Shown here: in pieces, positions 1,732 to 39,104 of the stretch
Layout: each line of letters opens with the position of its first letter
How positions within the stretch are numbered: position 1 is the stretch's first letter
Origin: a virus
Taxonomy: Duplodnaviria > Caudoviricetes
Length of the DNA: 64,000 bases
Strand: one strand, 5' to 3'
IMG/VR virus record: IMGVR_UViG_3300021387_000106
Coordinates: 45,801 to 109,800 of that record
Notes under the pieces: model-generated
The model's database searches: none
Told to the model about the DNA's origin: nothing
What the model saw: the letters and a program-made list of their open reading frames with translations, nothing else
Translations under genes and position numbers: made by a program

Positions 1732-2001
1732 TTAACCTTTGTCGATGATACATAATGTTGTGTTAATCTTAGCAACATTGACTTTAATCTCGTTGATACC
1801 TTCAAGAATCTCGTCAATCTTGCCAGAGTGGGAATCCACGCGGTTTTTCAAACTTTCCGCCAGCACCTCCAACACGGCAATACGCTTCTCCGCATTAAAA
1901 ACTTCGTCCTTTAATTTGTGAATCAGCGTAAAGTACGTGCCGAACACCGAAATCAGCACCGTAATGATGTACGGCCACAACTCATTAGCAACTGCTGACA
2001 T
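1732..2001 (-). CDS. Single-TM coiled-coil protein (holin/antiholin-like)
   Basis: N-terminal TM segment followed by a heptad coiled coil, within the lysis cluster. Confidence 0.55.
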   Translation of the reverse strand: MSAVANELWPYIITVLISVFGTYFTLIHKLKDEVFNAEKRIAVLEVLAESLKNRVDSHSGKIDEILEGINEIKVNVAKINTTLCIIDKG

Positions 2002-2013
2002 GATAGCAAATAA

Positions 2014-2487
2014 TTAATGAATGAAACAATAAGCAAAGATGGTAAGCATACAAGCAACCTCAACCCAGAAAAGGTTCTTGCTTCCATCCTTTGCAGCGAG
2101 AGTGTAACCAACGTATAAGAACCAAAGCAACAGCAAATGAGGGTGGTTGAAATATACCAACATCTGCGAAGCGAGTCCTGCAACGATGGCGGCGACGTTG
2201 TGCATGGTGTTCTTTTCATTGGCAAGCAACGGAGTAGCACCAACAGCACCAATTCCTACTATTGTAAGGAAAGCGAGAAATTCAGTCATTGGAGTAGCCA
2301 AATCTAAAAGCACGGGAGCCAAAAGAGCTGCAACGGCAAACATGACAGCACTGAATATCCACTTACCAGTAGTAGGTAGAGTGAATACCGTAGAGGAAAT
2401 ACTATTAGGTATCTCCTTGGTATGGTATATCATTGCCCCCACGTAGAGAGCAATGATAACCAATGCGATTACAACTAACAGAGTCAT
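2014..2487 (-). CDS. Multi-pass membrane protein
   Basis: About 5-6 hydrophobic segments in 157 aa. Confidence 0.65.
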   Translation of the reverse strand: MTLLVVIALVIIALYVGAMIYHTKEIPNSISSTVFTLPTTGKWIFSAVMFAVAALLAPVLLDLATPMTEFLAFLTIVGIGAVGATPLLANEKNTMHNVAAIVAGLASQMLVYFNHPHLLLLWFLYVGYTLAAKDGSKNLFWVEVACMLTIFAYCFIH

Positions 2488-2490
2488 AGA

Positions 2491-3033
2491 TTATTCCTCC
2501 ACAGTTTCAGAGTTGTTGTAAGGGCTGAAATCGAAGTTGTCCTTGATAGTCCAACCTTCCTGATAGCAGGTCTCTATGTAAGCCAAGCCACCGAGATAGA
2601 ACTGAACCAGTTCCTCGAACGACTGGAAAATCTCGTAGAGAGCCTTTCCTTCTTCGTCCTCAGAAACTTTGTACTTCATGGGGAACGTTACGAGATTAGG
2701 ATATTCCTTGGCAGCATCGTGCTTTGCCTTGAAGTTTTCCTGATTCTCATTAGAGAGCCAAACCTTAACAGTCTTACCCTCGTCGTCACCATGAAGGATA
2801 GTCCACTCATAGCCATTGAGAATCTTTTCATCAGTCGTAGCGTTGATGTCGTCGATGATGGCTTTCTTGATTTCAGCAAAGTCAAGATGTGAACGCTGCT
2901 TTTTGTAAACATACACCTCAACCCACTCTGCATGAGTGTCATCAACCTCTGTAAGGTTGTAACTGATAACAATGCGGCTTGCGTCCTCTTTGAGGTAAGC
3001 AAATTCCGACTTCAAACCAAAAACCTTGTTCAT
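2491..3033 (-). CDS. Tail-fibre-associated protein (DUF4376-like)
   Basis: The segment VWLSNENQENFKA...FPMKYKV resembles small proteins that follow tail-fibre genes. The start overlaps the RT stop (ATGA). Confidence 0.5.
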   Translation of the reverse strand: MNKVFGLKSEFAYLKEDASRIVISYNLTEVDDTHAEWVEVYVYKKQRSHLDFAEIKKAIIDDINATTDEKILNGYEWTILHGDDEGKTVKVWLSNENQENFKAKHDAAKEYPNLVTFPMKYKVSEDEEGKALYEIFQSFEELVQFYLGGLAYIETCYQEGWTIKDNFDFSPYNNSETVEE

Positions 3034-4235
3034 AATCGTTTCTTTTTAAATTGTTTATAAAAAATGAATTTATCTGTAAACTTCGTCAGATCTTGATTGA
3101 ACACTCCTATTTTCAAAATATCTTTCTTTAGGAATAGTTTCCTGCAAAGATTGTATGATTTGGTGTGTTGGAATATACCTAAATACGAATTGATGGAACG
3201 GACAATCTTCCAAGGTTTTGAGAAATCGAACTCCAAAATCTTTTTCTTCATTCTCTCCAGTGAATGATTCGATATGTATGTTCGCCAAGGCTTGATGTAC
3301 GCTCCCAAGAACTCTGTTCCGTTGTGTACCTCCGAAATCTCCAATTTTCCTCTGTGCAATTCCAATCCTAAGTTTTCTCGAAGGAAATCTATTATTTTTG
3401 GAACTAAGCTCAGAAGCCATTCTTTGTCGGAACTCACTACTGCCGCATCGTCCACATAACGACCATAATAACGGCATTTCATTTCTCGCTTCATGAACTG
3501 GTCGAAAACATTCAGGTAAACGTTCGAGAATAACTGACTTGTCAAATTGCCTATTGGTAATCCAAGACCATCTTCCAAGTGCAGCATACTCTTTGCAGGG
3601 TCTAAACCATCCCAATCGGACTTGTCGCCACAAATGACACAATTCTCCTTGGGATTCAGCATAACGATAACTTCCGTAAGCCATATTACAAAGTCCATAT
3701 CCAAAACTTCGCCCCACGTAGTATCTTCGTATTTCGATATAGCGTGAGTTTCCATTTTTCTCAAACTTCCAATAGCTATTTCCAAAAGCCGTTTCCTCAC
3801 GATGTGCATAAAGTAGCCCCTTATATCGAGGTGCATCACATAGCACTCTCTTTGCCAGTTGTGACTTTCCTTTCTGCAAAAATCCGTAATTCTCGCTATT
3901 CCATAATGAGTACCACGATTCTTGATGCAACTGTACGTGTCCTGAATAAAAGTCCTCTCGTATAGCTGATGCGTATAGTTGAAATACAAGTGGTGTACTA
4001 TTCTGTCTCTGAACATTGCAGCGAATATCTCTCGCTTTTTGGGATAATCCACAATGAAACATTTCGATGGAAGAGGTTTGTAATTCCGCGAATACAAATC
4101 CTCGCAAAGTCCTTCCATATTCCGTTTGAGATTCTTTTCCCAAGAGACTACATAACACCTCGCACTCTTGTTTATTTTCGCATCGTAGAACGCTTGATAG
4201 AGGTCGAGTAGAAGCTGTTGCTTTGTAAGTTCCAT
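3030..4235 (-). CDS. DGR reverse transcriptase
   Basis: PKKREIFAAMFRDRIVHH, LDIRGYF, GLPIGNLTSQLFSNVYL (DGR-type IGxxxSQ) and RYVDD motifs; adjacent to the TR. Confidence 0.96.
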   Translation of the reverse strand: MELTKQQLLLDLYQAFYDAKINKSARCYVVSWEKNLKRNMEGLCEDLYSRNYKPLPSKCFIVDYPKKREIFAAMFRDRIVHHLYFNYTHQLYERTFIQDTYSCIKNRGTHYGIARITDFCRKESHNWQRECYVMHLDIRGYFMHIVRKRLLEIAIGSLRKMETHAISKYEDTTWGEVLDMDFVIWLTEVIVMLNPKENCVICGDKSDWDGLDPAKSMLHLEDGLGLPIGNLTSQLFSNVYLNVFDQFMKREMKCRYYGRYVDDAAVVSSDKEWLLSLVPKIIDFLRENLGLELHRGKLEISEVHNGTEFLGAYIKPWRTYISNHSLERMKKKILEFDFSKPWKIVRSINSYLGIFQHTKSYNLCRKLFLKKDILKIGVFNQDLTKFTDKFIFYKQFKKKRL

Positions 4236-4272
4236 AAAAGAAAAGTAAAAAAAGGATGATTAGTACTGTTAG

Positions 4273-4459
4273 CTGAACCGGGCGCACAGCAAAACCGTTG
4301 TACCGATTGTTGTTGTTCTGCGGATTGACACCACCAGAGTTGAAGTTCAAGTTGCGAGCATTGCGCGCAGAGTTGAACGAAGCAGACCAGTAGTTGCCGT
4401 TCGAACCGCGATTGTTCCAACTCGTACCATTGCCGTTGCCACTACAAGCAAAAAAGAGT
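4273..4459 (-). ncRNA. DGR template repeat (TR)
   Basis: 187 bp colinear with 5313-5499 and rich in AAC codons. All 17 differences I counted are at minus-strand adenines of this copy. Confidence 0.95.
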
Positions 4460-4611
4460 TTTCGACCACAACCTTGCACGATAGCCAAAAGGGACCAAAG
4501 GAACCATTCGGCATCTTTGATTTTTCCCGACTCTAAAAGAGTAAGGACGTGTAGCCTATGTAAATCATACTGAACCATCCTTCATTAATTACTATTTTTT
4601 CTAATAATCTG

Positions 4612-5172
4612 TTAGAACAAAGCAATCAAACGCTTGCGAACATCACGCAAAGTATCTAACGCATCCTTGGGCGACAGCTCATCAATAGGCAACGCTATGA
4701 TGTATCTGTAAATATCCGATATGCGCATAAACTGAGGAACTTGCTGCTGAATTTCTCGTTCTTCACGTTTCTTTTTCTTGCTCTCGATAATAGGAAGTGA
4801 TTCTTTCCATTCCTCTTTCATGGCGATTAGTTCTTCAAGAGACTTCTCGTAGAAATCTGAGGGCATTGGAATAATCACGTCAACACGATTGTCATCAACT
4901 GGCAGGAACGTTACGCTACCATCATTGGGGATATACTTCTCAATTGACTTTGCAGGGAATCCCACAAATGCGTCAATTGTTTCATCTTTCATTTTCTTGG
5001 CGATAACCTTCAAAGGATTATTAACCGACTCACCAAATGGATATTTGCTCATTAACCATGCGCTCCAGTCGTGAGCGTGATAGAAGTTACCTTCCTTAAC
5101 GAAGTGAATAATGTTCCACTGAGATTGTTCCTGCCTGGAACTCTCCAAATTTATGATTTCAGATAAATTCAT
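4612..5172 (-). CDS. DGR accessory protein, MutS-domain-I-like (MSL type) rather than Avd
   Basis: Occupies the accessory-gene slot between VR and TR. IIHFVKEGNFYHAHDWSA resembles the MutS_I GxFY motif. Confidence 0.65.
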   Translation of the reverse strand: MNLSEIINLESSRQEQSQWNIIHFVKEGNFYHAHDWSAWLMSKYPFGESVNNPLKVIAKKMKDETIDAFVGFPAKSIEKYIPNDGSVTFLPVDDNRVDVIIPMPSDFYEKSLEELIAMKEEWKESLPIIESKKKKREEREIQQQVPQFMRISDIYRYIIALPIDELSPKDALDTLRDVRKRLIALF

Positions 5173-5209
5173 CCTTATCTTTGTTTTTATTATTTTTATT
5201 TTATTTATT

Positions 5210-5284
5210 AACCAATTCCATTACGGAGGTGGTCTTAGGCCGCTTGGTGCGGCCTTTGTCCGACCACTCCGAATGGATTGGGTT
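5210..5284 (-). promoter_or_regulatory. Nested hairpin/cruciform downstream of VR (DGR target-recognition element)
   Basis: Inner AGGCCGC-TTGGT-GCGGCCT (5237-5255) nested in CGGAG(G)TGGTC/GACCACTCCG and TCCATT/AATGGA arms. Confidence 0.65.
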
Positions 5285-5309
5285 GTTGTTCTGATTGGCT
5301 CAGTATGAT

Positions 5310-6413
5310 TTACTGAACCGGGCGCACAGCAAAACCGTCGTACCGACGGTCGTAGTACTGCGGATTGACACCACCAGAGTAGAAGACCAAGTTGCGAGCA
5401 TTGCGCGCAGAGTAGAACGAAGCAGACCAGTAGACGCCGTACGAACCGCGACTGCCCCAACTCGTACCATTGCCGTAGCCACTACAAGCAAAAAAGAGTA
5501 AGTTACCATTAATCTTCGACTTCAAGTAGATACCAACAACACCATTCACGGTTACACGCTTGTCAGTAGTACCAGCAGCGATTACCGTAGTGCCATCAGC
5601 CTGAACGAAGTCGCAATTATCGAACAACTCTTTAAATTCTTCCGTAGTAGGCATTCGCCAAGGTGCGCCAAGATTAGCGCGTGCAGCATCCTGAGAGGGA
5701 GCCATGTTAGCGGTCAACTTGTTACCTGGTGTGTCACCATAAACTTGTCCGTCATACCAAGGCTCTTCTGCATTAACACCACCCCAATTGTAATCGAATG
5801 AAGAGGTATCTTTCGGATTGTGTCCGTCAGTGTTACCCCAAGAGAAGAATGTTTTCTCGTACTGGAAGGCACTGGCAGCGAACTTGTCAGCCTGAGTGAG
5901 GTCAATATCAGAATCAGCCCAAAGCAAGCCACTTGGCAGACCCATATCTACAAGGTGGTTAGTTGGAGTTTGGCTCTGTTCGAGACCCAACATTCCTACC
6001 ATATTCCAAGCAGAACCATCATACTGGAATTGTACGATAGTCTGAGCCTTGATAAGACCAGGCTGAACAGCTTGACCGTTTACCTTAATGGATTTTGCGC
6101 CAGTGCTATTCACGTTAAGCGTTGCTCCTGCTGCCTGATTAGCATACTTGAAGAATACGCTCACGATACCATTCTTTAGCAGAACGAAGTTGGAAATAGC
6201 GACAGTCTTTGCAATCGTTGTTGCGGCTGTTTCGCAATTACCATATCCGTTACCAGACTTCGCCATATCCTGAACCAACTGCTGTGCAGGGTATTTACCC
6301 GCAGGAGTTCCGTCAGGATTGTACAGCATGACCTCCTGAGTTGCACCAGGTGCAGCCTGAGTGAGACCCGATTGAACCGCTTTCAAAGCGTTAATCATAG
6401 AAATACTTTCCAT
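5310..6413 (-). CDS. DGR target protein: tail-fibre/receptor-binding protein with C-terminal CLec-like domain
   Basis: VDMGLPSGLLWA and WRMPTTEEFKEL motifs, C-terminal YWSAS...GFAVRPVQ, and the VR at its 3' end. Confidence 0.9.
   Translation of the reverse strand: MESISMINALKAVQSGLTQAAPGATQEVMLYNPDGTPAGKYPAQQLVQDMAKSGNGYGNCETAATTIAKTVAISNFVLLKNGIVSVFFKYANQAAGATLNVNSTGAKSIKVNGQAVQPGLIKAQTIVQFQYDGSAWNMVGMLGLEQSQTPTNHLVDMGLPSGLLWADSDIDLTQADKFAASAFQYEKTFFSWGNTDGHNPKDTSSFDYNWGGVNAEEPWYDGQVYGDTPGNKLTANMAPSQDAARANLGAPWRMPTTEEFKELFDNCDFVQADGTTVIAAGTTDKRVTVNGVVGIYLKSKINGNLLFFACSGYGNGTSWGSRGSYGVYWSASFYSARNARNLVFYSGGVNPQYYDRRYDGFAVRPVQ
5313..5499 (-). repeat. DGR variable repeat (VR)
   Basis: Matches TR 4273-4459 at offset 1040, with only A-to-N changes. 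Confidence 0.95.
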
Positions 6414-6452
6414 AAATACTTATTTTTAATTAATAAAAAAACAATTTCCTTT

Positions 6453-6977
6453 TTAACCCTGAGTGACAACGTTCTTTGGCATCAGTTTGACTAATGCTTT
6501 AAACATATCATCTACGGTATAGTTGACACCATTGAAGGCGTAAGTATCAGTGGGCTTAACGGCATTAGTGGCATTGCTACGTATTGTAGCAAGGTCATTA
6601 ATAGCATCCTGCTTTGCAGAGAGAGCAGTATTAATGCTATTAACCCAATACTCAATAGATGCGTCCGTAAATATCTCCCAATCGGTATTAGCTGCACCAT
6701 TTGACACTACAAACGCTATCTTTCCGTTTACGGTATGGTAAACGAAAGCACCACTCACAATCACCATCGTACACGGCAGATTACTCGTTGCCTTTGTAGA
6801 GCGATACAACACACCGTTAATACCTACGACAGCGTTCTTGACAAACGTACTCGACGGTGTAAGCGAGTTGACATTTACAGGGTGCAGCATTTCATCAGAG
6901 AGTAAACTTTCCTTAAATTCAAGAAGTTCGCGCGCTCTGATAATTCTATTTGGGTTTGTAAGTTCAATTTCTGCCAT
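6453..6977 (-). CDS. Tail-fibre module protein
   Basis: In the tail-fibre operon; N-terminus is paralogous to 7068..7739. Confidence 0.6.
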   Translation of the reverse strand: MAEIELTNPNRIIRARELLEFKESLLSDEMLHPVNVNSLTPSSTFVKNAVVGINGVLYRSTKATSNLPCTMVIVSGAFVYHTVNGKIAFVVSNGAANTDWEIFTDASIEYWVNSINTALSAKQDAINDLATIRSNATNAVKPTDTYAFNGVNYTVDDMFKALVKLMPKNVVTQG

Positions 6978-20247: not shown

Positions 20248-23200
20248 TTATTGAACTGAAATCTTATCTACACCATTTGCGAACTTGTCAAGACGATTGC
20301 TGATATTCTCTATCATACCATAGATTTTACCTGCCTCACTAAATGTTAGTGCCATTGCAGCTACGTTTCTGTCAATGTTTCGCAAGGTGGTATGTACCGA
20401 AGTGATTTGTTCGATGTACGAAGCCCAATACTCCTGAATGAACATTGTAATAAACATTCTGTTCATAGCAACATCAGCTCTGATAGCATTGACATAGCTT
20501 GCTATGATGTCGGCAGTTTCCTCAGTAATACTCTTAATAGAACCACTAAGTGAACTTTCGTCTCTATTCTTAATAGAGAGTCCAGCCTGATTAACACCAC
20601 GCTCAAATTCAGCCAAGAAAACCTCTCCTGCTTTGATTGCAGCCTCACCTTCACCTCCCTTTCCAAAGAACTTAGCAATAATATTTGTAACTTGCTTTGC
20701 ACTCTTTTCGGGATTATCTATGTCAAAAACGCCACCACTCCATGTTCCATCTGCGTTTTGAGTACCAAATAGCTTGTTCTGCAATTTCTGCATAATAGGC
20801 TCAATAATTGCCAATTGCATCATCTTGCCTGCAAGACTGCGAAGAATATCTTCAACAGCTTTCTTATATGCTTTAGCCATATTAGTACCATTTTCAAATG
20901 CAGTAGCAAGAGCATCAGTAAGTTGTTGCGCCCAACCTTTCATGTCAATGCTCCACAACTCATTTGCGAGATCAAGAGCGAAGTAATGTATTTGGTCGTC
21001 GAGTTCGGCAATTTTCTTTTTGTACTCTTCCATTGCCTCGCCCGAACTATCCTTCTTATCTTCTTCCTCATTGTACATTTGCATATACTTCTCTCTTTCG
21101 GAACGAAGATTGGCGAGTTGTTGTTTATAACCAGAACCCTCACCATTTTGCTGATAGTAGTTATACATGGCTTCCTCGGCAGCAGAATTAAATCCTCTAC
21201 CATATCGACTACCCTTTATTATTGCACCCGCAAGACCTGTCAACTTACTTGCGAAATCAACATTTTCTTGATGGTAGTATTGATTGGAATACAATTGACG
21301 CAAATTTCCTGAGTCATATCCTAACGTGCGCTGTCTTGTTTTCAGTATCAGTTCAGTATTGTTAGCAATACGAGACACTTCTTCCTTCAACTCCTGAATC
21401 CTACGTTCACGGCGCTTGTCATGGAGTTTTGCAAAACCAGTAATCGGAGCTGCAATCATGTCGATGGGTGAAGATATAACGCTACTTACAACACCACCTA
21501 TATTACCAGACATAGCGTTTTGCACAATATTGTTTGCAGGAGCAAGGAAAGAAGTACCAGCCTTGATACCATCACTCAAATCTCCCCAGAAGTTTGCAGC
21601 ACCAGTATTGCCTAATGCCTGGAACATATTAGCAAGAGATTGAGTAGCGTTTACCAATCCGTCAGCCACACCAGTAGCCATTTGCAGAATAGTTGCAAAA
21701 CTGCTAAGACTACCAATTACCTTTGATAGCTTGTTTTGCAAATCAACAAGATGCTTCTTTTCTTTCTCTTCATCTTCTGTAAGACCGCCATTTTTCTCTT
21801 TTGTTTCAAGAGCCTGCAATCTGTCTTTTGCAAATTCATTAGAACCTTTTAATCCACCTTGCATAAAGGCAGTAATGGTATTCTGAACACCAAAGAAAGA
21901 ATCTTCACGGAACTTATCAACAACATCACGAATCTTACGCATTTGTTCTGCGTAGGTCTTTGCGTCAATAGTTCCCTTTTTAACGGCTTTATTCAGAGAG
22001 TTTTCAACAGCTTTGGCAGCATCTTCAATAGCTTTCTTTGTCTGACCGATTGCGCCATTCATAAAGTTTATGTATTGCGCACCCATTTGGAATGTTTTCC
22101 ATTCCTTATCAGAATCAAGTTTAGCCATTGCAGCCTTATACTGTTCCTCAGTAATACCAAGAAGATTGCCGTTTGCATCCTTTTCACCATTCTTACGTTG
22201 GTCTCGCAATCTTGTAATAGCCGCAACCTCACGCTCATATTCGTCATTGATACGTCTAAGTTGTGCTTCATAGGTCATTACACTGCCAGTAACCTTTGCG
22301 AATATCTGAACGTCGTTTTTGTAAACGTCACGCTGCAAATCACGCCATTTCTGATATTCTTCAACAAGTCCTTTGATTTGCTCCTGATACTTCTTAACAG
22401 ATGACTCCAGTACTCCCCACCTTTCAGTATCTTCAAAAAGTTTCTGTATTTCGTCATCAGAAAGATTTATATCAAATTCAAGAGAATATCGCCCTCCTGC
22501 TTCCTCAAAGTCCTTTTCTATTTTTTGACGTGTAGCATCAGCAAGATTCTGAGTATTTCCATTCTTGTATTTTGCACCACTGAGCTGATTAGCCAAGGCA
22601 ACATCACCAGTAGATTCACGAACGGAATTGAATAAATCCCACGAACGGGTAAGATTGTCAAGTTGGATTTTAACCTTGCTTGCGAACTCGTCCATTTTGC
22701 GGTTGGCTTCCTCATAGTCCACGTTGCTGATAGCATCACGCAACTGCTTGATAGCCTCTACCATGTAAGAGTTCTTATGCTTTGGAGTCTTATACAACTT
22801 CATTGCCTCGTTGAGCAATTCAGTGAGATTCTTCTTATAAGTAGGAATGGAATCCAAAGTAAGATTGGTTTTCCAAGTCTTATTGAACTCGTCAAACAAT
22901 GGTTGGAACTGAGCCTGAACTTTCTTCAAAGCACCAGCCTCACCAACTTGTTTCTCGTACTTGTTATACCAGTCGTAGGCATCCTTGTAGAGTTTTGCAA
23001 TCTCACGCAAGCGTTTAGCCTCTTTATCCTCTTGCTTACCCTTGTTGCCTTTAGTCGGGTCTGTTTCAGGATAGCCCTCTTTCTTTAGCCAACTCTTATC
23101 TTCCTGAACAGCCATCAAAGCATCATAGTAAGGCTTGATTTCTTTGTCGATACGACTATAAATAGCTTGCGCACCATCCCAATCACCATTCATGGCTTTC

Positions 23201-26200
23201 TTCTGACCTTCAATAGCCAATTTATCCATAAGAGCGCGTAACTTATCTGCGTTCATCAGCACATCAGTATCAATGTTCAAAGTCATTTTAAGATGTGCTT
23301 GATTGCGTTTAAGATAGGCTTGCTTTTCCTTCAAGTCTTTCTGAACAGCTTGTGCAAATTCATCAAGACTCTTATCAAAGTTAGTCTTTATGGCGATATT
23401 CTCAACAAATACTTGTGATGCACGTTTCTGCCAGTCAGTTTTCAACTTAACGGCATTTAATTTTGCATCCAAACCATCACGATATGCCTCTGCATGATTC
23501 ATTCCAAGTTTCTCCATATCGTAACCCATAGACTCACCCCACTTAATAGTAAGTTCAGAATATTTCTGCAAGGCCTTTTCTGCCTCTTCTGGTGAAGTTG
23601 ATTCCTTGATGGTATTACCAACGAGACCCATGAATTGCTCCATTAATATACGCTTCTGCATTTCGTCGATAATACTACCCTGCATATTCTTAGGAAGGTA
23701 CTCACGCATAGCTTCAAGCATTAATCGAGTTGCATCTTCCATAACACGCGGGTCTGTAATACCTGACATAGAAAGCAGTTTCTTCATGTAGGTACTTATT
23801 GCATAGATAGCACCATCGGGATCATTACTGAACTCGTTCACGATAATGGATGACATTTTCTCTGCCATTTCCTTTGTGTCTGCTTCGAGTTGTTGATATT
23901 GACCTCTAAGTGTTCTGCCAAAACCACCCTGAGTTGCATTTCTAAAGACTTTCCCTGCAAGAGTATCATATATGTCTCTATTCGGAACACCATTCTTAGC
24001 CCAATCTGCAAACAAATGGGAAAGTGCATCATTCTTTGAGCCAAGAGAATATTTCTTCTGCAATTCAGCAATTTTACCGCCTAATTGCTTATCAATTCTA
24101 TCTATGATTTCTTCGTTGATGCCGCTAATATCTTTCTCAGCATCATTCAGTCTCTCGGCATAATCCTTAATATCGGTAGTATAAGAATCTCCAAACAGAC
24201 GAGTAAACCAGTTAGAGCCTGCCACATCAACATCAGCATCAGTTATGACATTCGACATTGCTTCTGTCACATCGTTTGCATGACGAATACTTTCAAGTTT
24301 ACGGACAATTAACTTGAATTGCTCTACCTGATTGTTCATCTTGTCAATATCTACGAGGTCGCCCTCATACATTGGTGACAAATCGGCAAGTTTATTCTTT
24401 AGTTCCTCAATCCTTTGTGTCAAGTCCTCTTTGCTCAGTGCGTCGTCATTGAACTCTACAAGATTGGAAACAACACGTTTGCCTGCAACAAACTTTCCTG
24501 ATGCTTCATCAATACTCTTGATAAAGTTATCATCCTGCAATTCCTTGAATATATCACCAAGTACTTTCAAGTCGGAAGTTGCTTTCTCTGCAAGATCGTG
24601 ACTTGCTTCCTCTGCCTTACTCTTCATTTCGCTAACACGGGCAAACATATCCATAATGACCGTCAATGCAGCCATTGGTAAAGCAATCTTTCCAAAACTC
24701 CATATAGCCGAACCAGCCTTTCGGATTGCATTGCCTAATGTTATCCATGCAACACGCATCTTCGATACTGATGTTACACTTCTAAGTTCCCAAAGCATAA
24801 CAGCTTTTGCGTGACGTTCCTCTGCTGTTGCTGCCTTCATTGCAAGAACGGCTTCAAGGGCTAATTCCTTATTGATTTTACCCAAGGCAACTGCACGGAA
24901 CAATTCTTCCTGAGAGAGTTTCTTGGTACTCAGCAATACGGCAAGGTTACTTGCAGTCAGTTTGCCAGAAGTGGCATACCAGTGAGAATGAGTAGCAAGG
25001 AGTTTCCATTCCTCTGCTGTCAAAGCACGATATTCTTTTGCAAGACGTAGAATGTTGACCTCTTCTTTCTGATGCGCTGCTGCTTGATTCAGAACAGAAA
25101 CGGTATTAGCACCGATAGCTTGATTATACGCAAGAGTGGCTATCTTTGCAACACCTAATACTCCTACGACACCTAACATATCCTTACCATATCTTCCCCA
25201 TTCCTTTGCGCCTGCTGTAAGCGTTTCTGCAATTTTCTTCAATGCAGTACCAACACCACTTTCAGCAATTTCGCCATACATAATATCAAATGCGTCGCGC
25301 AAGTTCTTGAATTTGGCGTTAAGAGCCTGAGACATAACTTCCTGTGCCTCGTAGAACATACCACCTTCATCAGTCAACTGGCGCAAAACTTCCTGAACGT
25401 CCTCATAGGAAATTTCCTTCTTGCGGACTTTCTCACGAACTTGCTTTGTGCTGATACCAAGATTCTCAGAAAGCATCCTCAGTACTGGCACGTTACCCAT
25501 AGCGAACTGTCTCAGAGTGTAGCCGGACAAAGCACCCTCAGAACGAACGTGACCTAATGCCAAAGCGAGTCGGTCAACACTCGTACCAGTTGCAGCCGAA
25601 ATGTCTGCAAGTCGCTTAGTCCAATCGTAAAGTTCCTTGTATTCAAAGCCGTATGCGGTGAGTTGCTTTGACATCTTATCAAGTTCAACTACACCAAAAG
25701 GCGACTTAACAGCCAATGCTTTGATTTGTCCGAACAATTCCGTTGCCTGACCTGCATTTTGCAAGATAGCACCGATAGACAAACGCTGTTGCTCCAACAA
25801 ACCGCCAGTCTCAATAATACTATTAATAAAGGATTGTGCGCCCCAAACGGAAATATACTGCATAGCCAGCATCTTCAAGTCAGAAAGTACCTGAGATTGC
25901 CCCTTCATGGAATCGGTAGCACCTCTAATTGAATTGGCAAGACGTTGCTCTGATTCTGTAAGTTGGTTATTCACATTGGCAGCTACACGTTTATTTATAT
26001 TGAGCTGATGAATTGCATCGTTAGCTTCCTTATTTGCGGCATTGAGACCCATATTGCTTGCAATCTCTTTGCCAGAGGTGCCGTATGAAGAGAAACCAGT
26101 ACGTCCGAAGTTTGCCAATTCCTGCTGAATGGCACGAATCTTATCAATAGCGTTCTGCAAAGGAGTGGTATCAATGCCAGCCTTTGCGAAGTCAACCTTT

Positions 26201-29200
26201 ACGAGATTTAGCTTATCAATCCTATTACCAAGATTCTCAGCAGTACGCTGTGCAGCCTTCATTCTGCTTTCAGCATCCCTCAAATCCTGAGTAAACTGGC
26301 TCAGATTATTCTTATTGTAGAAAGAACTTGATTTGACGTTATTGTGTGCCAAAGCCTCAGAAGCCAACATTCCCTGACGGATTCCGAAATCCTGAACGGT
26401 GGCAGTATTGGAAGTACGACCATTATTGCTATAAATCTCCTTCATCAACTGGCGAACCTTTTCAAGATACTCGATGTATCTGTCAAGACCAGACACGTCA
26501 ACATTAGCCGTAATACCTCTTGCACGAAGGGCTTGCAACTCATTCAGCTTCGCACCAAGTTCATTATACTTAACGTAGGCATCATTTACGCTCTTGATTT
26601 CGTCTTTCAGACGTTTATCATCGGCTCTATCAGAACGTCTATTAGACTGTTGCTGTGCAGTAGTCAAACGTTCCTCAGACTTACGGAGTGCATCGGTATC
26701 ATCACGAAGTGTACGGATATTCTTAATACGCTTCTCAACAAGCACGTTGTTCTGCATATCGGCAGGAGTCATACCTTTCAGCAAGTTCAACTGACCCTGC
26801 AACTTGCTACGTGCATCAGTGAGAATAGTCATATCACGTCCTGGGGTGGCAGTACCGCGACTGATAGCGGAATCCAACTTACGCATTTGCGCCTCAGTAC
26901 GCTCTATTTCCTTCTGAATATCCTTTTGAGCCTGAATAGCCGCTTTAGCCTTTTCTTGCTCTGCCTTTGCGTAGGTTTTCATCTGAGACTCCTGCCAACG
27001 CTCAACATTCTTCTGGTATTCCTGTTCCTGCCTTGCAGCTTCTTTCTTCGACTGGTTGGTAAAACGCTCTACCTCTTTATTATATTCATTCTCTGCCTTG
27101 ATGCGCTCCCTTGTGAAAGCGTTCAAGTCAGTAACCATTTGCTTAGAGTCTTTAAGCGTATGGGTATTGTCGGGATTGATGACGGAAGCATAGCCGTGAC
27201 GAGTACCAAGCAATTGCTCATTCGTCATGGCAGTAAGAATCTCCTGCTTGATAGCGTTCAATCGGTTAATCTGCTGTGCAACGGCTTTCGTCATATCTTC
27301 ATCAGCATACTGCGAAGCGTTGCGCCATGCTCTCATAATACCTTGAATGGCATCCTGAACGTTATAAAGTCCAGTTTCAAGACGTGTGGTATTCCATTGC
27401 TTGATAGAGGCATTGGCATCAGTCAATGACATATCCTTTACCAATTGCCTTGCGGCGGCAGACGTATCGGTAATGCTATGTTTCAACTTGTCGTAATGAG
27501 CATTGAACATAGCAACATCATCGGCTCTACCAGGCAACGGCAACTTCAATGACTGAGGTGTATTCAGGAATCGGATAATATCGGGATTGTCACGATTCTG
27601 CAAGATAAGGCTTATCCATCTGTTGAGCGTTTGCAGATAGTTCATATTGGAATCTTGAACAGCTTGCAGCTTATCCATTCCTGCAACCTTATGACCTTCC
27701 ATATACTTAGAACTACCCTCTGCAAGTTTCATCATGCGCTCAATATGAGCTTGCTCCTTGATAAGTGTCTGAATGTTCAACTCACCAACACGATTGATGG
27801 TTTCCATAGCAGCACCTACACCGCCAAAGCCTTTCGAGCCAGTGGAATTGAACTCTTCAACACGCTCTTTGAGTTTCTGAATGGCAGTCTCAAAGGATTC
27901 GGCAGCACGACGACCAGAAAGAATTTCCTCAACTATCTTTTGGAAATCCTTAACGGCTTTGTCGCTCCACATTTCCTTAGTCTGCTTACCCATCAGCAAC
28001 TCACCATTGAACTTAGTGGCATCGGCTTTCAATGCACCAGGCTTAGAGAGCGTATCAGTCATAGTGGCTACCTTCTGCAACCACTCGTAATACTCTCTGA
28101 GCTTCAATAGTCTTTGCTCCAGTCCGTCATCACGAAGTTTCTGATTGCTCAGTTTCTCGTACTCAACGGCAATCTGAGTCAGAGCCTCATAGACATTCTT
28201 CGTATGGTTCTTTAATACGTCGAGGTTTGCATTAAGGGTGGTTTCGCTACCTTTCTTCTCTGATTGCATCTTCATACCCTCAACACTCTTCGAGAGTTCA
28301 TCAACCTTCTGCTTTGCACTGGCAGCATCACTTTCTACTTTCTTGAATGTCTCAGGTGTGACAATGGCTTTCAGAGACGATTCCATGCGATTTGTCGATT
28401 CCCACAACAAATCCATTGACTTTTTTAGTTGAGCAACTGCCTCATTGAGAGTCTTGATAGTAGGCTCAATAGATGACAAGTCAATGTTGAATGAAGGAAC
28501 TTGCACGTTCTGAACACCAGTTGCCTTCACCATTGCCAGTTTCTCCCATTGCTCTACGACCTGAGTAATCTTCTTACGCAGTTCCTCGAATTGGGCTACC
28601 ATCGTAGCAATAGTTCCTTTATCCTGACCCCATGAGCCGATAGCCATTTTGAGGTTATTGGTGGCAGTAGTCAGTTCTTGCGTAGCCGTAAGGAGTTTCT
28701 GAATAGCTTCTGCATTGGCTTTTGAGGCAGATGCAGCCTTATCTTCGGCAGAAGAAGTCTCATCAACTGCTGCTGCATTCTTTTTACGGGCCTGAGTTTC
28801 TTTCTGAATAGATTCGGTAGTCTGATTTTTCGCACGATTGGCACGTTCCTGACTCTCCGATATTTTTTCGAGATTCTTTGCACCTTCGCCAAGTGATTTC
28901 AAGTTCTTGGTACTCTCCTTAACGGAAGTGCCAGCAGCAGTAAGTACCTCAGAAAGATTCTTAAAGGCAGTGGCGAAGGAATCAATGATAGGACTGCCAG
29001 ACAACCCGGATTTCTTCAATTCATCCATCTGTGACTGAACAGCCTCCATTTCCTTTTTGACCTCAGTGAAAGCCCCCATCTTACCACCTGAGAACGATTC
29101 GCCTGAGCTCATGATGTATGCTGATTTCCTACTCAGCATATCCATTGTGTTAGCGAGTTCAAGGAACTTCGCAATATCCTCACGATTACCTCCCAATATG

Positions 29201-30108
29201 GTATAGAGATTCTTTGTAGCTAACGTGGCAACGGAAATCGAATCAGCGACACGAAGGATAGAAGCGGCAGTAGCTTGTGCCTGCGCTTCCTCGGCTTTCA
29301 AAGCGGCAGCAGCAGTATTCGTAGCAGTAGCCAAAGAATCCTCGCTGACCTTCACATCGGCTTTCTTCTCATTAAGATTGCCAAAGGCTTTAGCCAAAGC
29401 CTGCGCCATCTTGGAAGTTCCTTCATCTACCTTTGCGACATCAGTAGCCATATCCTTAACACCACTTCCAGTACCAAGGCTCTTCAACTGGCTAACCAAG
29501 GAACTGAAAGCATTGACAAGGGCATCTACCTTTGTAGTAAGACCGCCAACCTCACCAGAAAGCGACTCCATACCAGCCTTTGAACCACCGATACGAGCCA
29601 TATTCTCCTGAATGGTGTTACCCATATTCTTGAAGGTGTCCATTGTGGCACGGGCTACATTCTCGCTCAAACCAAATTCCTTCTCCAAGTTGGCTCTTGC
29701 GGTACGATACACCTGACCTAATGCCATAGTGGGACCAGTGACATCAGCCTGACCTTCTTTCAGTCCTGCTTTCTCCCTTGCTTTCTGATAGTTCTCATAG
29801 GCAACAGTCACTTTCTGCAACTGCTTTTCGAGATTGCTATAATCAATATCCTTTGGAATCATGCCAAGACGAACCATTGAGGCCTGCAAATTGTCAATCT
29901 TATGCAGCAACGGCTCTAACATCTTACCATCACCCAACTGCTTCAAAGCATCAAGGAACGTCTTTAAGTCGTTGGATTTCTCCAATTGCACCTTTAGACT
30001 GATAGAGTTGTCGGCCATCTTAGCAAGAGCCTTTACCTCTTCCAGTATCTTGTTGTATTCCTCGTTGGCACGTTTGATACCAACTTCAAACATGAGAGTG
30101 TTAGCCAT
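20248..30108 (-). CDS. Tape measure protein
   Basis: 3286 aa, helical; core LFGQIKALAVKSPFGVVELDKMSKQLTAYG...RLADISAATG; follows the tail chaperones. Confidence 0.92.
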   Translation of the reverse strand: MANTLMFEVGIKRANEEYNKILEEVKALAKMADNSISLKVQLEKSNDLKTFLDALKQLGDGKMLEPLLHKIDNLQASMVRLGMIPKDIDYSNLEKQLQKVTVAYENYQKAREKAGLKEGQADVTGPTMALGQVYRTARANLEKEFGLSENVARATMDTFKNMGNTIQENMARIGGSKAGMESLSGEVGGLTTKVDALVNAFSSLVSQLKSLGTGSGVKDMATDVAKVDEGTSKMAQALAKAFGNLNEKKADVKVSEDSLATATNTAAAALKAEEAQAQATAASILRVADSISVATLATKNLYTILGGNREDIAKFLELANTMDMLSRKSAYIMSSGESFSGGKMGAFTEVKKEMEAVQSQMDELKKSGLSGSPIIDSFATAFKNLSEVLTAAGTSVKESTKNLKSLGEGAKNLEKISESQERANRAKNQTTESIQKETQARKKNAAAVDETSSAEDKAASASKANAEAIQKLLTATQELTTATNNLKMAIGSWGQDKGTIATMVAQFEELRKKITQVVEQWEKLAMVKATGVQNVQVPSFNIDLSSIEPTIKTLNEAVAQLKKSMDLLWESTNRMESSLKAIVTPETFKKVESDAASAKQKVDELSKSVEGMKMQSEKKGSETTLNANLDVLKNHTKNVYEALTQIAVEYEKLSNQKLRDDGLEQRLLKLREYYEWLQKVATMTDTLSKPGALKADATKFNGELLMGKQTKEMWSDKAVKDFQKIVEEILSGRRAAESFETAIQKLKERVEEFNSTGSKGFGGVGAAMETINRVGELNIQTLIKEQAHIERMMKLAEGSSKYMEGHKVAGMDKLQAVQDSNMNYLQTLNRWISLILQNRDNPDIIRFLNTPQSLKLPLPGRADDVAMFNAHYDKLKHSITDTSAAARQLVKDMSLTDANASIKQWNTTRLETGLYNVQDAIQGIMRAWRNASQYADEDMTKAVAQQINRLNAIKQEILTAMTNEQLLGTRHGYASVINPDNTHTLKDSKQMVTDLNAFTRERIKAENEYNKEVERFTNQSKKEAARQEQEYQKNVERWQESQMKTYAKAEQEKAKAAIQAQKDIQKEIERTEAQMRKLDSAISRGTATPGRDMTILTDARSKLQGQLNLLKGMTPADMQNNVLVEKRIKNIRTLRDDTDALRKSEERLTTAQQQSNRRSDRADDKRLKDEIKSVNDAYVKYNELGAKLNELQALRARGITANVDVSGLDRYIEYLEKVRQLMKEIYSNNGRTSNTATVQDFGIRQGMLASEALAHNNVKSSSFYNKNNLSQFTQDLRDAESRMKAAQRTAENLGNRIDKLNLVKVDFAKAGIDTTPLQNAIDKIRAIQQELANFGRTGFSSYGTSGKEIASNMGLNAANKEANDAIHQLNINKRVAANVNNQLTESEQRLANSIRGATDSMKGQSQVLSDLKMLAMQYISVWGAQSFINSIIETGGLLEQQRLSIGAILQNAGQATELFGQIKALAVKSPFGVVELDKMSKQLTAYGFEYKELYDWTKRLADISAATGTSVDRLALALGHVRSEGALSGYTLRQFAMGNVPVLRMLSENLGISTKQVREKVRKKEISYEDVQEVLRQLTDEGGMFYEAQEVMSQALNAKFKNLRDAFDIMYGEIAESGVGTALKKIAETLTAGAKEWGRYGKDMLGVVGVLGVAKIATLAYNQAIGANTVSVLNQAAAHQKEEVNILRLAKEYRALTAEEWKLLATHSHWYATSGKLTASNLAVLLSTKKLSQEELFRAVALGKINKELALEAVLAMKAATAEERHAKAVMLWELRSVTSVSKMRVAWITLGNAIRKAGSAIWSFGKIALPMAALTVIMDMFARVSEMKSKAEEASHDLAEKATSDLKVLGDIFKELQDDNFIKSIDEASGKFVAGKRVVSNLVEFNDDALSKEDLTQRIEELKNKLADLSPMYEGDLVDIDKMNNQVEQFKLIVRKLESIRHANDVTEAMSNVITDADVDVAGSNWFTRLFGDSYTTDIKDYAERLNDAEKDISGINEEIIDRIDKQLGGKIAELQKKYSLGSKNDALSHLFADWAKNGVPNRDIYDTLAGKVFRNATQGGFGRTLRGQYQQLEADTKEMAEKMSSIIVNEFSNDPDGAIYAISTYMKKLLSMSGITDPRVMEDATRLMLEAMREYLPKNMQGSIIDEMQKRILMEQFMGLVGNTIKESTSPEEAEKALQKYSELTIKWGESMGYDMEKLGMNHAEAYRDGLDAKLNAVKLKTDWQKRASQVFVENIAIKTNFDKSLDEFAQAVQKDLKEKQAYLKRNQAHLKMTLNIDTDVLMNADKLRALMDKLAIEGQKKAMNGDWDGAQAIYSRIDKEIKPYYDALMAVQEDKSWLKKEGYPETDPTKGNKGKQEDKEAKRLREIAKLYKDAYDWYNKYEKQVGEAGALKKVQAQFQPLFDEFNKTWKTNLTLDSIPTYKKNLTELLNEAMKLYKTPKHKNSYMVEAIKQLRDAISNVDYEEANRKMDEFASKVKIQLDNLTRSWDLFNSVRESTGDVALANQLSGAKYKNGNTQNLADATRQKIEKDFEEAGGRYSLEFDINLSDDEIQKLFEDTERWGVLESSVKKYQEQIKGLVEEYQKWRDLQRDVYKNDVQIFAKVTGSVMTYEAQLRRINDEYEREVAAITRLRDQRKNGEKDANGNLLGITEEQYKAAMAKLDSDKEWKTFQMGAQYINFMNGAIGQTKKAIEDAAKAVENSLNKAVKKGTIDAKTYAEQMRKIRDVVDKFREDSFFGVQNTITAFMQGGLKGSNEFAKDRLQALETKEKNGGLTEDEEKEKKHLVDLQNKLSKVIGSLSSFATILQMATGVADGLVNATQSLANMFQALGNTGAANFWGDLSDGIKAGTSFLAPANNIVQNAMSGNIGGVVSSVISSPIDMIAAPITGFAKLHDKRRERRIQELKEEVSRIANNTELILKTRQRTLGYDSGNLRQLYSNQYYHQENVDFASKLTGLAGAIIKGSRYGRGFNSAAEEAMYNYYQQNGEGSGYKQQLANLRSEREKYMQMYNEEEDKKDSSGEAMEEYKKKIAELDDQIHYFALDLANELWSIDMKGWAQQLTDALATAFENGTNMAKAYKKAVEDILRSLAGKMMQLAIIEPIMQKLQNKLFGTQNADGTWSGGVFDIDNPEKSAKQVTNIIAKFFGKGGEGEAAIKAGEVFLAEFERGVNQAGLSIKNRDESSLSGSIKSITEETADIIASYVNAIRADVAMNRMFITMFIQEYWASYIEQITSVHTTLRNIDRNVAAMALTFSEAGKIYGMIENISNRLDKFANGVDKISVQ

Positions 30109-36449: not shown

Positions 36450-39104
36450 ATGGAGAAATTTACAGGACTTACGACTACCGATGGAAAACCCGTAATATCC
36501 AATGAATTTATTGCGGACTTACGGGAGCGTGAAAAAGACAAGATTCAATCAAATAATTTTGTCGCTCAGGTTGGTCCCCAAGAGGATGACCTTCACGCTT
36601 CCGTTGACATTCTGATTACTGGCGGTAATCGTGGTGGTGGAAAAGCCAATACTTACTATACCCCGATAGTTACTCCCTATGGTTATAAGAGAATGGGCGA
36701 ACTTGAAGTTGGTGACGAAATATGTACTCCATACGAAGGTGTGCAGAAAGTCACTAACATATTCGAGCAAGGCGAAAAAACCATTTATAGTTTCCATTTC
36801 GATGACGGAACAAGTGTTCAATGTATGGACGAACACCGATTTTGGGCTAAACTGACAGCATCTGGCGACTATAAGGAACTGACTGCAAGGGAGATTATGA
36901 ACAACTACAAGTTGGGATTGAAGAATCCGCAATCTCTACGTTCAGGTCGTGAATACACCGAGATTCCTCTTTGCGGAGAGGTGAAGATGCAGGAGAATGT
37001 AACTCCTATTGACTTACCTATCCACCCATTCCTCTTTGGTCTTATAGCAGGGAAAGGTGTTTGGCATTTCGCAAAGATTGGTGTATCAATCGTAAACGCT
37101 CCAAGAGTATTGCAGTTTGCCTACAAAATGGGTTACAAGCCAAAGAAGATTAATGGTTTCTATTACCTCAAAGGAATAACCGATGAAAACAGACGGATGA
37201 TTACGAAATGCCGTGCAGAGGAACCATCCTTTATACCTCAGGAATATTTGACTGCAAGCATAGAAGCACGTTGGGATTTGGTACGAGGTATTTTGTACTC
37301 TGGAGGTAGATCAAAGAATAAGCATCCTTATCTTGCACTGCCTAACAAACGTTTCGTTACGCAATTCGCTGAACTTGTCCGTAGTCTTGGTGCTTGGGCG
37401 AAAGTGTCAGAAATTACCGATGACCCTGAAAAGGTTGGGTACTGGCAATGTATAATGATTTTCCCCAATGACAAGGAAGCATGGCAGAAGTGCGATTATA
37501 AAAACATGGCACACATCAATGCCGATAAGATGGTTAGCCCGACACAAAGAGGCTGTTTGACAAAGAAGATTCTCTATATCACAAAACAAGACCATAAGCA
37601 AAAATGCAGATGTATAACGGTTTCTGGCAAGCATCACTTGTATATGACTGATGCTTTCACTATCAACCACAACACGTTTACTTTGCTCATGGAACCATTA
37701 TATGACATCGACAATCCACGATTCAATGGTGTCATATTCCGAAAAGAGAAAGATGACCTTAATAATATTATACGCACGTCGCGCCTGATGTATAGTCCTT
37801 TCGGACACTTCAACAAGTCTAAGGATGATTTGACCTGGTACTTCGATAACGGCTCTGAATTGTCATTCCAGTACTATGCTGATGCGTTTGATGACTTCAA
37901 AGACAGATTCCAAGGACGTGAGTATTCCTTTATCGGTGTGGACGAGATTACGCAGATTGAGTTTGAAAAGTTCAAGTATCTCGTAACGAACAACCGAAAT
38001 TCAGCTTTCATCAAGAATAGGATGATTGGCACTTGCAACCCTGACCCTCTTTCATGGGTACGCAAGTTCATTGACTGGTGGATTGATGAAGATGGATTCC
38101 CAATCAAAGAGCGAGACGGAGTTATCCGCTACTGCTACATGAAAGGCGATTCCGTTGATACAATCGTTTGGGGTGATACCCGTGAAGAGGTCTATGAGCA
38201 ATGTAAGGAAGAGATAGATAAACTATGGGAACCTGAATATGAGGAAATGGGCTATACCAAGGAATCTATGTTCACGAAAGCCGTTACATTCATTCGTGCT
38301 GAGCTGAAATACAACCGCAAGCTGTTGCAGACCGACCCATCGTATTTAGGAAACCTCGCACAACAGGGAGAGGAACAGCAAGCCCGTGACCTTCAAGGAA
38401 ACTGGAACTTCATGGCAATGGGTGATGACCTTATCAAGATGATTCATTTGCAGCGTTGCTTTGAGAATCCGCAAATGATTGGTGACGGAATACACAGAGC
38501 CAGTTGTGACGTTGCTTTCACTGGTGGCGACAATTGCGTACTTTGGCATTGGATCGGTTGGCACGTAGCTGATGTGTTCGTCTGTAAGCTCGATTCGGTG
38601 AGTACTTGCAATGCTATCAAGGCGAAACTCGACGAATGGGGAGTGCTGGAAAAGAATTTTGTATATGACCTCAACGGATTAGGACAGACTTTCAAAGGTT
38701 TCTTCAAACAAGCACGTCCGTTCAATAACGTTGAGGCTGTGGAACAGAAATACAAAAACATCTACGACAGCAAGAAGTCGCAGTGTATGTATCTCTTTGC
38801 AAAGAAGATTATCGACGGAGAAATCAGTTTCTCACCTGAATTGCTCGATAGAAAGTTTGAAGTTGGTAAGAGAAATGGAAAGAAAGGTCAAGTGATGCGA
38901 CTCAGAGACATTCTGATGTTAGAGCGCAAATGCGCACGTCAGGATGAATCGAAAGCCGATAAAGGATGGTGTGTCATCAAGAAGGAACAGATGAAGCAAC
39001 TCGTAGGTTGGTCGCCTGACTTCTTTGAATCCTTGATGATGCGGCAGGACTTTGATGTAAGTCGCAAAACCGTGACTATTCCCGGTTGGGTTCGTAATTT
39101 CTAA
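36450..39104 (+). CDS. terL: Terminase large subunit with intein
   Basis: Walker A GGNRGGGK/T split by the intein, Walker B FIGVDEITQ, GTCNP, and nuclease-domain CDVAFTGGD and SPDFFES. Confidence 0.92.
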   Translation: MEKFTGLTTTDGKPVISNEFIADLREREKDKIQSNNFVAQVGPQEDDLHASVDILITGGNRGGGKANTYYTPIVTPYGYKRMGELEVGDEICTPYEGVQKVTNIFEQGEKTIYSFHFDDGTSVQCMDEHRFWAKLTASGDYKELTAREIMNNYKLGLKNPQSLRSGREYTEIPLCGEVKMQENVTPIDLPIHPFLFGLIAGKGVWHFAKIGVSIVNAPRVLQFAYKMGYKPKKINGFYYLKGITDENRRMITKCRAEEPSFIPQEYLTASIEARWDLVRGILYSGGRSKNKHPYLALPNKRFVTQFAELVRSLGAWAKVSEITDDPEKVGYWQCIMIFPNDKEAWQKCDYKNMAHINADKMVSPTQRGCLTKKILYITKQDHKQKCRCITVSGKHHLYMTDAFTINHNTFTLLMEPLYDIDNPRFNGVIFRKEKDDLNNIIRTSRLMYSPFGHFNKSKDDLTWYFDNGSELSFQYYADAFDDFKDRFQGREYSFIGVDEITQIEFEKFKYLVTNNRNSAFIKNRMIGTCNPDPLSWVRKFIDWWIDEDGFPIKERDGVIRYCYMKGDSVDTIVWGDTREEVYEQCKEEIDKLWEPEYEEMGYTKESMFTKAVTFIRAELKYNRKLLQTDPSYLGNLAQQGEEQQARDLQGNWNFMAMGDDLIKMIHLQRCFENPQMIGDGIHRASCDVAFTGGDNCVLWHWIGWHVADVFVCKLDSVSTCNAIKAKLDEWGVLEKNFVYDLNGLGQTFKGFFKQARPFNNVEAVEQKYKNIYDSKKSQCMYLFAKKIIDGEISFSPELLDRKFEVGKRNGKKGQVMRLRDILMLERKCARQDESKADKGWCVIKKEQMKQLVGWSPDFFESLMMRQDFDVSRKTVTIPGWVRNF
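36645..37673 (+). mobile_element. Intein (343 aa, Ala1, degenerate LAGLIDADG domain)
   Basis: Begins ANTYYTPIVTPYG...GDEI and ends CRCITV...TINHN/T. Removing it restores GGGK-T. Confidence 0.9.

Follow-up and report, generated by a model that had tools for sequence, protein, structure and literature searches.

The window (the whole 64,000-nt stretch of DNA analysed here) lies within a complete phage genome of 109.8 kb with direct terminal repeats, and bovine-gut sequencing runs contain this phage or near relatives of it. On the minus strand, a segment of the late operon carries, in order, a target gene with the variable region (VR), an accessory gene, a leader, the template repeat (TR), a spacer, the reverse transcriptase (RT) gene and a DUF4376-like gene (Table 1). 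Of 187 aligned positions, TR and VR agree at 170; each of the 17 mismatches falls at a TR adenine, a pattern also found in nearly all related loci. In comparison with a 99%-identical genome (L003), 22 of the 55 substitutions in 4.6 kb fall inside the 187-nt VR; from this, and from the adenine-only mismatches, the DGR is taken to be active. By every criterion tested, a recognisable Avd excepted, the element is a DGR.

The best phage relatives of the RT are annotated as DGR or retron-type RTs, Bordetella phage records among them. Residues 208–366 of the target gene product give weak Fib_succ_major and Lcl_C matches, below the Pfam cut-offs. The accessory gene is conserved in position in the relatives, and its 186-aa product has no sequence match in Pfam, PHROGs or PDB and is not recognisable as an Avd from its sequence. 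The gene downstream of the RT is assigned on a Pfam DUF4376 match (E = 4.7e-4, below the cut-off), on phrog_19239 and on DUF4376 clusters in the ESM Atlas. Neither the window nor the 109.8-kb genome showed a second copy of the RT region (a hidden target) or a concatemer. A sigma-70 promoter and terminator scan of positions 1800–6700 gave nothing convincing on the minus strand, with fewer hits than in shuffles, and is uninformative for a probable Bacteroidota-type host.

Table 1. Features of the DGR locus and of the long open reading frame (ORF) that crosses it, in window coordinates.
Feature	Position	Strand	Description
DGR target gene	5310..6413	-	367 aa, from the ORF list; VR at the C-terminus
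Variable region (VR)	5313..5499	-	187-nt repeat of the TR, 90.9% identity
DGR accessory gene	4612..5172	-	186 aa, from the ORF list; stop 33 nt before the ATG of the 502-codon ORF
Structured leader RNA	4460..4611	-	about 150 nt, 5' of the TR; carries ORF codons 1 to ~40
Leader-spacer helix, 5' strand	4568..4584	-	contains the ATG of the ORF
Long ORF	3070..4578	-	502 codons; leader, TR in the VR frame, RT gene in the -1 frame
ORF start codon	4578-4576	-	inside the 5' strand of the leader-spacer helix
Template repeat (TR)	4273..4459	-	repeat pair with the VR
U-rich spacer between TR and RT		-	37 nt, read from the sequence
Leader-spacer helix, 3' strand	4250..4266	-	CAUCCUUUU motif, between the TR and the RT start
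DGR reverse transcriptase (RT)	3030..4235	-	401 aa; RVT_1, E = 3.8e-10
ORF stop codon	3070..3072	-	36 nt upstream of the ATG of the DUF4376-like gene
Downstream DUF4376-like gene	2491..3033	-	180 aa; ATG overlaps the RT stop (ATGA)

An open frame across the RT gene

A first-pass annotation, made without database searches, had described an ORF starting at an ATG at 4578, just after the accessory gene, and reading the TR in the frame of the VR; its coordinates and frame are exact, and the stop-free overlap in the -1 frame of the RT, put there at about 388 codons, is 387 by direct count. For a stop to arise in this frame, a T-ending RT codon must be followed by AA, AG or GA. With 109 T-ending codons and 127 codons starting with AA, AG or GA, the RT gene is expected to have 34.4 such junctions. 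Just three -1-frame stops are observed, all within the last 15 codons (387, 392 and 395), and the 387 codons of this frame within the ORF have none. The +1 frame of the same gene has 30 stops. The Poisson probability of a stop-free frame is about 6e-13.

Synonymous-codon permutation of the RT, which had been proposed as a check, leads to the same result. In 20,000 permutations the mean number of stops was 29.2 (sd 3.7, minimum 16), and the longest open run averaged 50 codons and never exceeded 172, so that not one permutation approaches the observed 387. Nor is there anything comparable elsewhere in the window, as the annotation had also remarked: for the other ~35 long ORFs the ratio of observed to expected -1-frame stops is about 0.4–1.4, mostly 0.75–1.0, compared with 3 versus 34.4 for the RT. 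Keeping the frame open costs the RT zero amino acids, because every NNT codon has an NNC synonym and a T-to-C change is enough.

Distribution among related loci

Related DGR loci, 164 in all, were gathered from IMG/VR and metagenomes; their contigs come from many independent studies and assemblers. The open frame was observed in about 37 distinct RT sequences with 54–100% RT identity to the window. These form about 25 lineages that share less than 90–97% RT identity with each other, the most diverged being at 54–58% to the window. The distribution is bimodal. Open sequences have 0–1 stops before codon 360, where 12–36 are expected (5–8 in the most GC3-rich), while the others have at least five, scattered, in roughly the expected numbers; half-length forms are absent. 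In the non-redundant open lineages T precedes AA, AG or GA at just 3 of 2,394 junctions; closed lineages from their own clade have 229 of 1,258. The two groups do not differ in how often T stands before the 13 non-stop dinucleotides. Scattered stops in close homologues, which would have refuted selection on the frame, were not found: it is still open at 58–81% RT identity. That it is held open by selection, as first inferred from the window alone, is strongly supported by the permutations and by this conservation in many diverged lineages. Phage records were of no help here. A blastn search of 50,697 of them with the TR-RT region gave no match, and tblastn found only relatives with less than 35% identity, too distant for a comparison of frames.

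In an RT tree of the first set of loci, all open rows are in one clade of 47 (SH-aLRT 95), which also holds 15 closed rows; all 25 outgroup rows are closed. A tree with 134 rows needs about 10 changes between open and closed, at least five of them forced by well-supported branches. The only open rows outside the main clade are the pair L160/L161, which come from GC-richer phages and are in a different RT clade, so the frame may have arisen twice. The simplest history compatible with these trees would be one gain, possibly two, and several losses. In lineages after a loss, stops build up to the expected number.

Position of the ORF ends relative to neighbouring genes

In open relatives with a start codon in the leader, the ATG is observed 340–360 nt before the RT ATG and 10–65 nt after the accessory stop. 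Seven relatives (L027, L029, L031, L041, L066, L075 and L102) are different: the ORF ATG is 7 nt before the RT ATG, in the arrangement ATGAnnnATG, and in most of them the TR is outside the ORF. The RT-overlapping part has thus persisted with a new ATG at -7 after continuity with the TR was lost. The first-pass annotation had given prominence to translation of the TR. The ORF does read the TR in this phage, but this is not the conserved part, since most of the relatives with the -7 ATG skip it; what is conserved is the traversal of the RT gene.

At the other end, the ORF extends to RT codon 363 or beyond (at least 363) in 25 of 25 open lineages, and between its stop and the downstream ATG there are 2–87 nt or, in L052 and L054, a 4-nt overlap (ATGA). 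Both start and stop are therefore within reach of neighbouring genes, as would be required of an ORF that serves to pass ribosomes through. Every one of the 25 open lineages has a homologue of the DUF4376-like gene, as do 7 of the 12 closed lineages in the clade. The reading frame of the RT itself continues 23–272 nt into the downstream gene in 14 of the 25 open lineages but in none of 17 closed ones (18 with L036), where the RT stop abuts or overlaps that ATG (Fisher p ~1e-4, open versus closed; the lineages are not phylogenetically independent, and this is uncorrected). Such run-on of the RT in open lineages fits coupling to the downstream gene via the ORF rather than via the RT. The idea that closed lineages simply have no downstream gene on the same strand was rejected: most have one, including the DUF4376-like gene in the 7 of 12 noted above.

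The start contexts of the two frames are quite dissimilar. That of the ORF has 11 A residues between -20 and -1, like the phage's real genes; that of the RT has one and ranks as the poorest in A among 37 ORFs of the window. The possibility that closed lineages have a better context at the RT start was considered as well and rejected, the same U-rich context being found in both groups.

Constraint on the encoded product

The first-pass annotation had offered three possible roles for the frame, the first being an overprinted protein. A functional but loosely constrained one, such as an accessory or anti-host factor that evolves fast or is disordered, is unlikely, although it remains the best placed of the alternatives. 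An overprinted gene should have an alternative-frame ORF with a start codon that is open in diverged homologues, and this is the case; the ORF is long, its ATG is conserved, and its full length is kept in every open lineage. It should also have reduced synonymous variation or amino-acid conservation, and this was not found. Where an RT junction cannot give a stop, third-position identity is 0.46–0.475 in open pairs and 0.41–0.44 in closed pairs, with synonymous sites near saturation in both groups and third-position composition equal between them. The slight excess in open pairs (+0.03–0.05), which is seen even away from the risk junctions, is in favour of a protein, and because of it a weak constraint at the protein level is not excluded. 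A sliding window along the ORF revealed no locally conserved segment, and amino-acid identity is 35–38%, compared with a background of 28–33%.

The N-terminus is a poor guide in this respect. Its conserved look (MVQ.D.HR...) is a feature of the RNA, since loci without the ORF have it too, and the N-terminal part differs in kind among open lineages, consisting of leader and TR in most and being absent in those with the -7 ATG. No foldable or recognisable product emerged from the searches made: an AlphaFold2 model of the ORF product from a 21-sequence alignment had a mean pLDDT of 27.8 and a pTM of 0.14, there was no Pfam match, and among 5.8 billion protein clusters there were only seven relatives, all about 500 aa long as the query is, and of unchecked genomic context. 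It speaks for a protein that viral proteins which arose recently by overprinting tend to be disordered and little conserved (a review in this field is PMC8227390). Even so, two sister lineages, L016 and L053, have replaced the ORF with an in-frame TR-RT ORF, and with neither amino-acid conservation nor a predicted fold nor a family match the proposal of a functional protein is disfavoured. Rather, it appears from the comparisons above that only stop codons are avoided, while the encoded amino-acid sequence drifts.

Leader RNA and the leader-spacer helix

An RNAalifold analysis of the leader in 30 loci gave 32 pairs, 18 of them with compensatory changes, and the structure is kept in loci with and without the open frame. 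A second element joins the leader to the spacer: RNAduplex gives -15.7 kcal/mol for positions 4568–4584 against 4250–4266, and a corresponding helix of 14–17 bp is predicted in 27 of the 30 loci (z mostly -3 to -4.6), again with compensatory changes. The MFE fold of the whole region is not distinctive (z = -0.86); covariation backs specific helices only. One strand of this conserved helix is formed by the U-tract before the RT start, which is equally present in relatives without the ORF. It also follows that use of the ORF ATG as a start is not assured, since this ATG is conserved for RNA structure and is sequestered in the folded RNA.

The U-tract had suggested another of the three roles, a TR-RT fusion made by slippage. 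More generally, the frame could be open for the sake of trans-frame products, either TR-peptide-RT fusions or RT/X hybrids, arising through slippage in translation or transcription at a site such as the T7 tract. The RT frame is indeed open from just 5' of this tract to the RT ATG, so that a +1 slip would give a fusion; only a +1 slip reaches the RT frame, a -1 slip from the ORF entering the stop-rich RT +1 frame. There are natural precedents of a sort, in the in-frame leader-TR-RT ORFs of L016, L053, L048 and others and in a 1-nt deletion in L003 that creates an X/RT hybrid ORF. However, a fusion requires openness only as far as the slip site, not over 387 codons; the T-tract is accounted for by the leader-spacer helix, in loci without the ORF as well; every locus keeps the RT ATG and N-terminus; and the share of in-frame TR-RT ORFs among closed loci is about that of a chance phase. 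Slippage therefore lacks specific support and is very improbable as the reason for the frame. The in-frame TR-RT ORFs of closed loci were also considered as a selected alternative route and rejected, being indistinguishable from chance phase.

Hardly anything is left of a third alternative, that the frame is not selected through translation at all but is a by-product of composition, codon-pair bias, a mutational process or chance: the scarcity of T-ending codons in L020, L084 and L160 (only 5–8 stops expected) does allow a chance origin in a GC3-rich ancestor, but as a cause of maintenance it is effectively refuted already, by depletion limited to three stop trinucleotides in one phase (T before AC, AT, GG, GC and GT is normal), by sister lineages from the same habitat that have the same third-position composition and carry the expected stops, and by the 30 stops of the +1 frame and the absence of any similar outcome in 20,000 permutations.

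A possible role in ribosome passage

Only translation tells reading frames apart, and selection on ribosomes reading this frame is for that reason the only reasonable explanation of its openness. That passage matters rather than the product is suggested by the free drift of the sequence, the all-or-none occurrence of the ORF, the closeness of its ends to neighbouring genes and its survival of a restart at -7. The bimodal distribution and the stop-specific depletion are the pattern expected of selection on openness alone, with the full length required. The interpretation adopted here, held with confidence that is no better than evenly balanced, is that the ORF is genuine, under selection and most likely translated, a pass-through in which the uninterrupted passage of ribosomes is preserved and not a polypeptide; translation is untested. 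Of the roles first proposed, one based on ribosomes is consequently the best fit, given the avoidance of stops only and the ends abutting neighbouring genes, though that ribosomes translate the ORF remains an inference. What passage would achieve, whether downstream expression or transcript integrity, is likewise inferred.

Under this interpretation, ribosomes would load at the A-rich leader ATG, 33 nt past the accessory stop, or in some relatives at the ATG 7 nt before the RT ATG instead. They would then traverse the TR, the RT start and the RT gene in the -1 frame, and terminate 36 nt before the DUF4376-like ATG. Such a by-pass lane would cover the ~1.6-kb TR-RT stretch with ribosomes and so might guard the late operon against polarity or decay, and it would deliver ribosomes to the downstream gene (the host, with its Rho and reinitiation behaviour, is unknown). 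The weakly initiated RT would be left off the main flow of ribosomes, with translation of the ORF competing with RT initiation.

On any one transcript, the template RNA should not be able to fold while the ORF is being translated, and vice versa, because the ATG and the U-rich spacer are the two strands of the helix that brackets the TR. Two modes can be imagined. In an mRNA mode, ribosomes would travel from accessory to downstream gene, the helix around the TR would be melted and RT initiation occluded; in a template mode, the helix would be formed and the RNA free of ribosomes, leaving the TR to be copied by the RT. It is a tentative suggestion, somewhat short of an even chance, that this is a new kind of overlapping ORF, about 500 codons long, maintained by synonymous changes only, selected for openness, and switching each transcript between these modes. 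Against the by-pass reading are the cost of a junk polypeptide of about 55 kDa and the fact that raising RT translation would seem simpler. The by-pass must also be dispensable or compensable, since closed lineages with the same downstream gene exist. RNA evidence is limited to bovine-gut metatranscriptome libraries containing a ~97%-identical relative, in which one 2.1-kb contig bridges positions 2231–4331. These are assembled contigs, which show no strand, ends or translation, and DNA carry-over is not excluded.

Comparison with known systems

The template repeat of a DGR, together with its surrounding RNA, is usually treated as non-coding, and large dsDNA phages are considered to have few long same-strand overlaps. 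Embedded phage genes are well known, such as phiX174 B within A and E within D, or lambda Rz1 within Rz. Like the ORF here, each is a same-strand ORF in a shifted frame, lying wholly or almost wholly inside another gene and kept open by selection. These are ORFs of at most about 120 codons, with defined protein functions and constrained sequences; the ORF here, in contrast, overlaps 387 codons, is without amino-acid constraint or a predicted fold, and has ends that adjoin its neighbours. DRT2 has another stop-free frame tied to a reverse transcriptase, whether bacterial or phage-borne, and to its template RNA: 'neo', a never-ending ORF made by a defence reverse transcriptase. It exists only in the concatenated cDNA and has no stop, whereas the frame here is genomic, lies across the RT gene itself and has a defined stop at its end.

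The canonical DGR, of the Bordetella phage BPP-1 type (surveyed in PMC5758913), has the same one-strand layout of target with VR, accessory gene, TR and RT, with adenine-specific TR/VR differences and structured RNA around the TR, as here. According to that survey, 'The TR is not translated in vivo' (PMC5758913). The present locus departs from the canonical type in two respects: the TR, there assumed to be untranslated, is inside a selected second frame along with the whole RT gene, and the accessory protein has no match to Avd or any other family. A similarity of another sort exists with translational coupling, with termination-reinitiation, and with leader or upstream ORFs whose peptide is unimportant: there, too, translation matters over its product, stop and start are tens of nt apart or share ATGA, and translation competes with RNA structure. 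Papers in this field deal with re-initiation in E. coli (PMC2268962) and, in a review, with Rho polarity (PMC12360218). The known examples are short ORFs or ordinary genes, whereas here an ORF of about 500 codons, two orders of magnitude longer than coupling or leader ORFs, is threaded synonymously through an enzyme gene. A literature search found no description of such an ORF.

With a 387-codon overlap held open at ~100 synonymous sites per genome in dozens of diverged phages while the sequence drifts, the locus shows, in nature and with unusual clarity, selection acting on translation as such and not on a protein. If the by-pass is real, it would be a means by which a phage places an enzyme that is weakly expressed and potentially mutagenic, along with a structured template RNA, within a tightly coupled late operon, and would add a layer of translational control to DGR activity. 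There is a practical side as well: gene callers sometimes choose the longer ORF over the RT, and the seven relatives of about 500 aa are already in protein databases.

Structured RNA around the template repeat

The leader RNA that separates the accessory gene from the TR shows strong covariation (alignment A3 of related DGR loci, columns 60–173), with nested helices and compensatory changes at 18 of 32 pairs. This structured RNA occurs in DGRs that have the overlapping ORF as well as in those that lack it, and it probably belongs to the DGR template RNA. The TR is itself bracketed by a long-range helix formed by leader AAGGAUGGUU... and spacer ...AAUCAUCCUU; of 30 loci, 27 are predicted to form this helix, and it shows compensatory changes. 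This leader-spacer helix accounts for the conserved ATG and also for the U-tract that precedes the RT start.

Frame variants in related loci

In L003, a 99%-identical IMG/VR genome, a single nucleotide is deleted from the RT (CC to C, at L003:3404, corresponding to window position 3831). Because the -1 frame of the RT is open, this deletion yields a single hybrid ORF of 515 codons, in which the N-terminal part of the overlapping ORF is followed by the last 266 residues of the RT. The deletion may be genuine, giving a variant with an inactivated RT, or it may have arisen through misassembly. In other related loci (L016, L053, L048, L056/L046, L035, L057, L068, and L084) the VR frame of the TR continues into the RT reading frame with no intervening stop, so that leader, TR and RT form one ORF of about 510 codons. 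The frequency of such in-frame ORFs is about that expected from chance phase.

The same architecture as in the window (accessory gene stop, ATG, TR, RT read in its -1 frame, and a stop codon, here 33–42 nt ahead of the next gene) is found in L160 and L161, on IMG/VR contigs of 134–135 kb with a locus GC content of 53–58%. The L161 RT appears to start with GTG. These two loci fall in a different RT clade, and their open frame may therefore have originated independently.

RT 3' ends

Many open-frame lineages (L009–L013, L017, L021–L023, L031, L040, L051, and L052) lack the RT stop codon at its usual position, and the RT ORF then runs 23–272 nt into the downstream gene in a different frame. Several of these extensions stop at a similar point, about +116 to +119.

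Other features of the window

The accessory protein (186 aa) had no sequence matches in Pfam, PHROG, or PDB, and these searches lend no support to a MutS-like identity. Directly 3' of the VR and the target gene stop codon is a GC-rich inverted repeat, at the position, 3' of the VR, where DGR target-recognition hairpins have reportedly been described.

Positions of features in the window
Feature	Position	Strand	Remarks
Leader-spacer helix	4568-4584 with 4250-4266		brackets TR
Leader RNA	4460-4611	-	nested helices
Accessory gene	4612-5172	-	
Inverted repeat	5245-5290	-	GC-rich
Single 3,286-codon ORF	20248-30108	-	within same late-strand block
Terminase large subunit gene	36450-39104	+	upstream of 3,286-codon ORF
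Portal gene	39117-40883	+	upstream of 3,286-codon ORF
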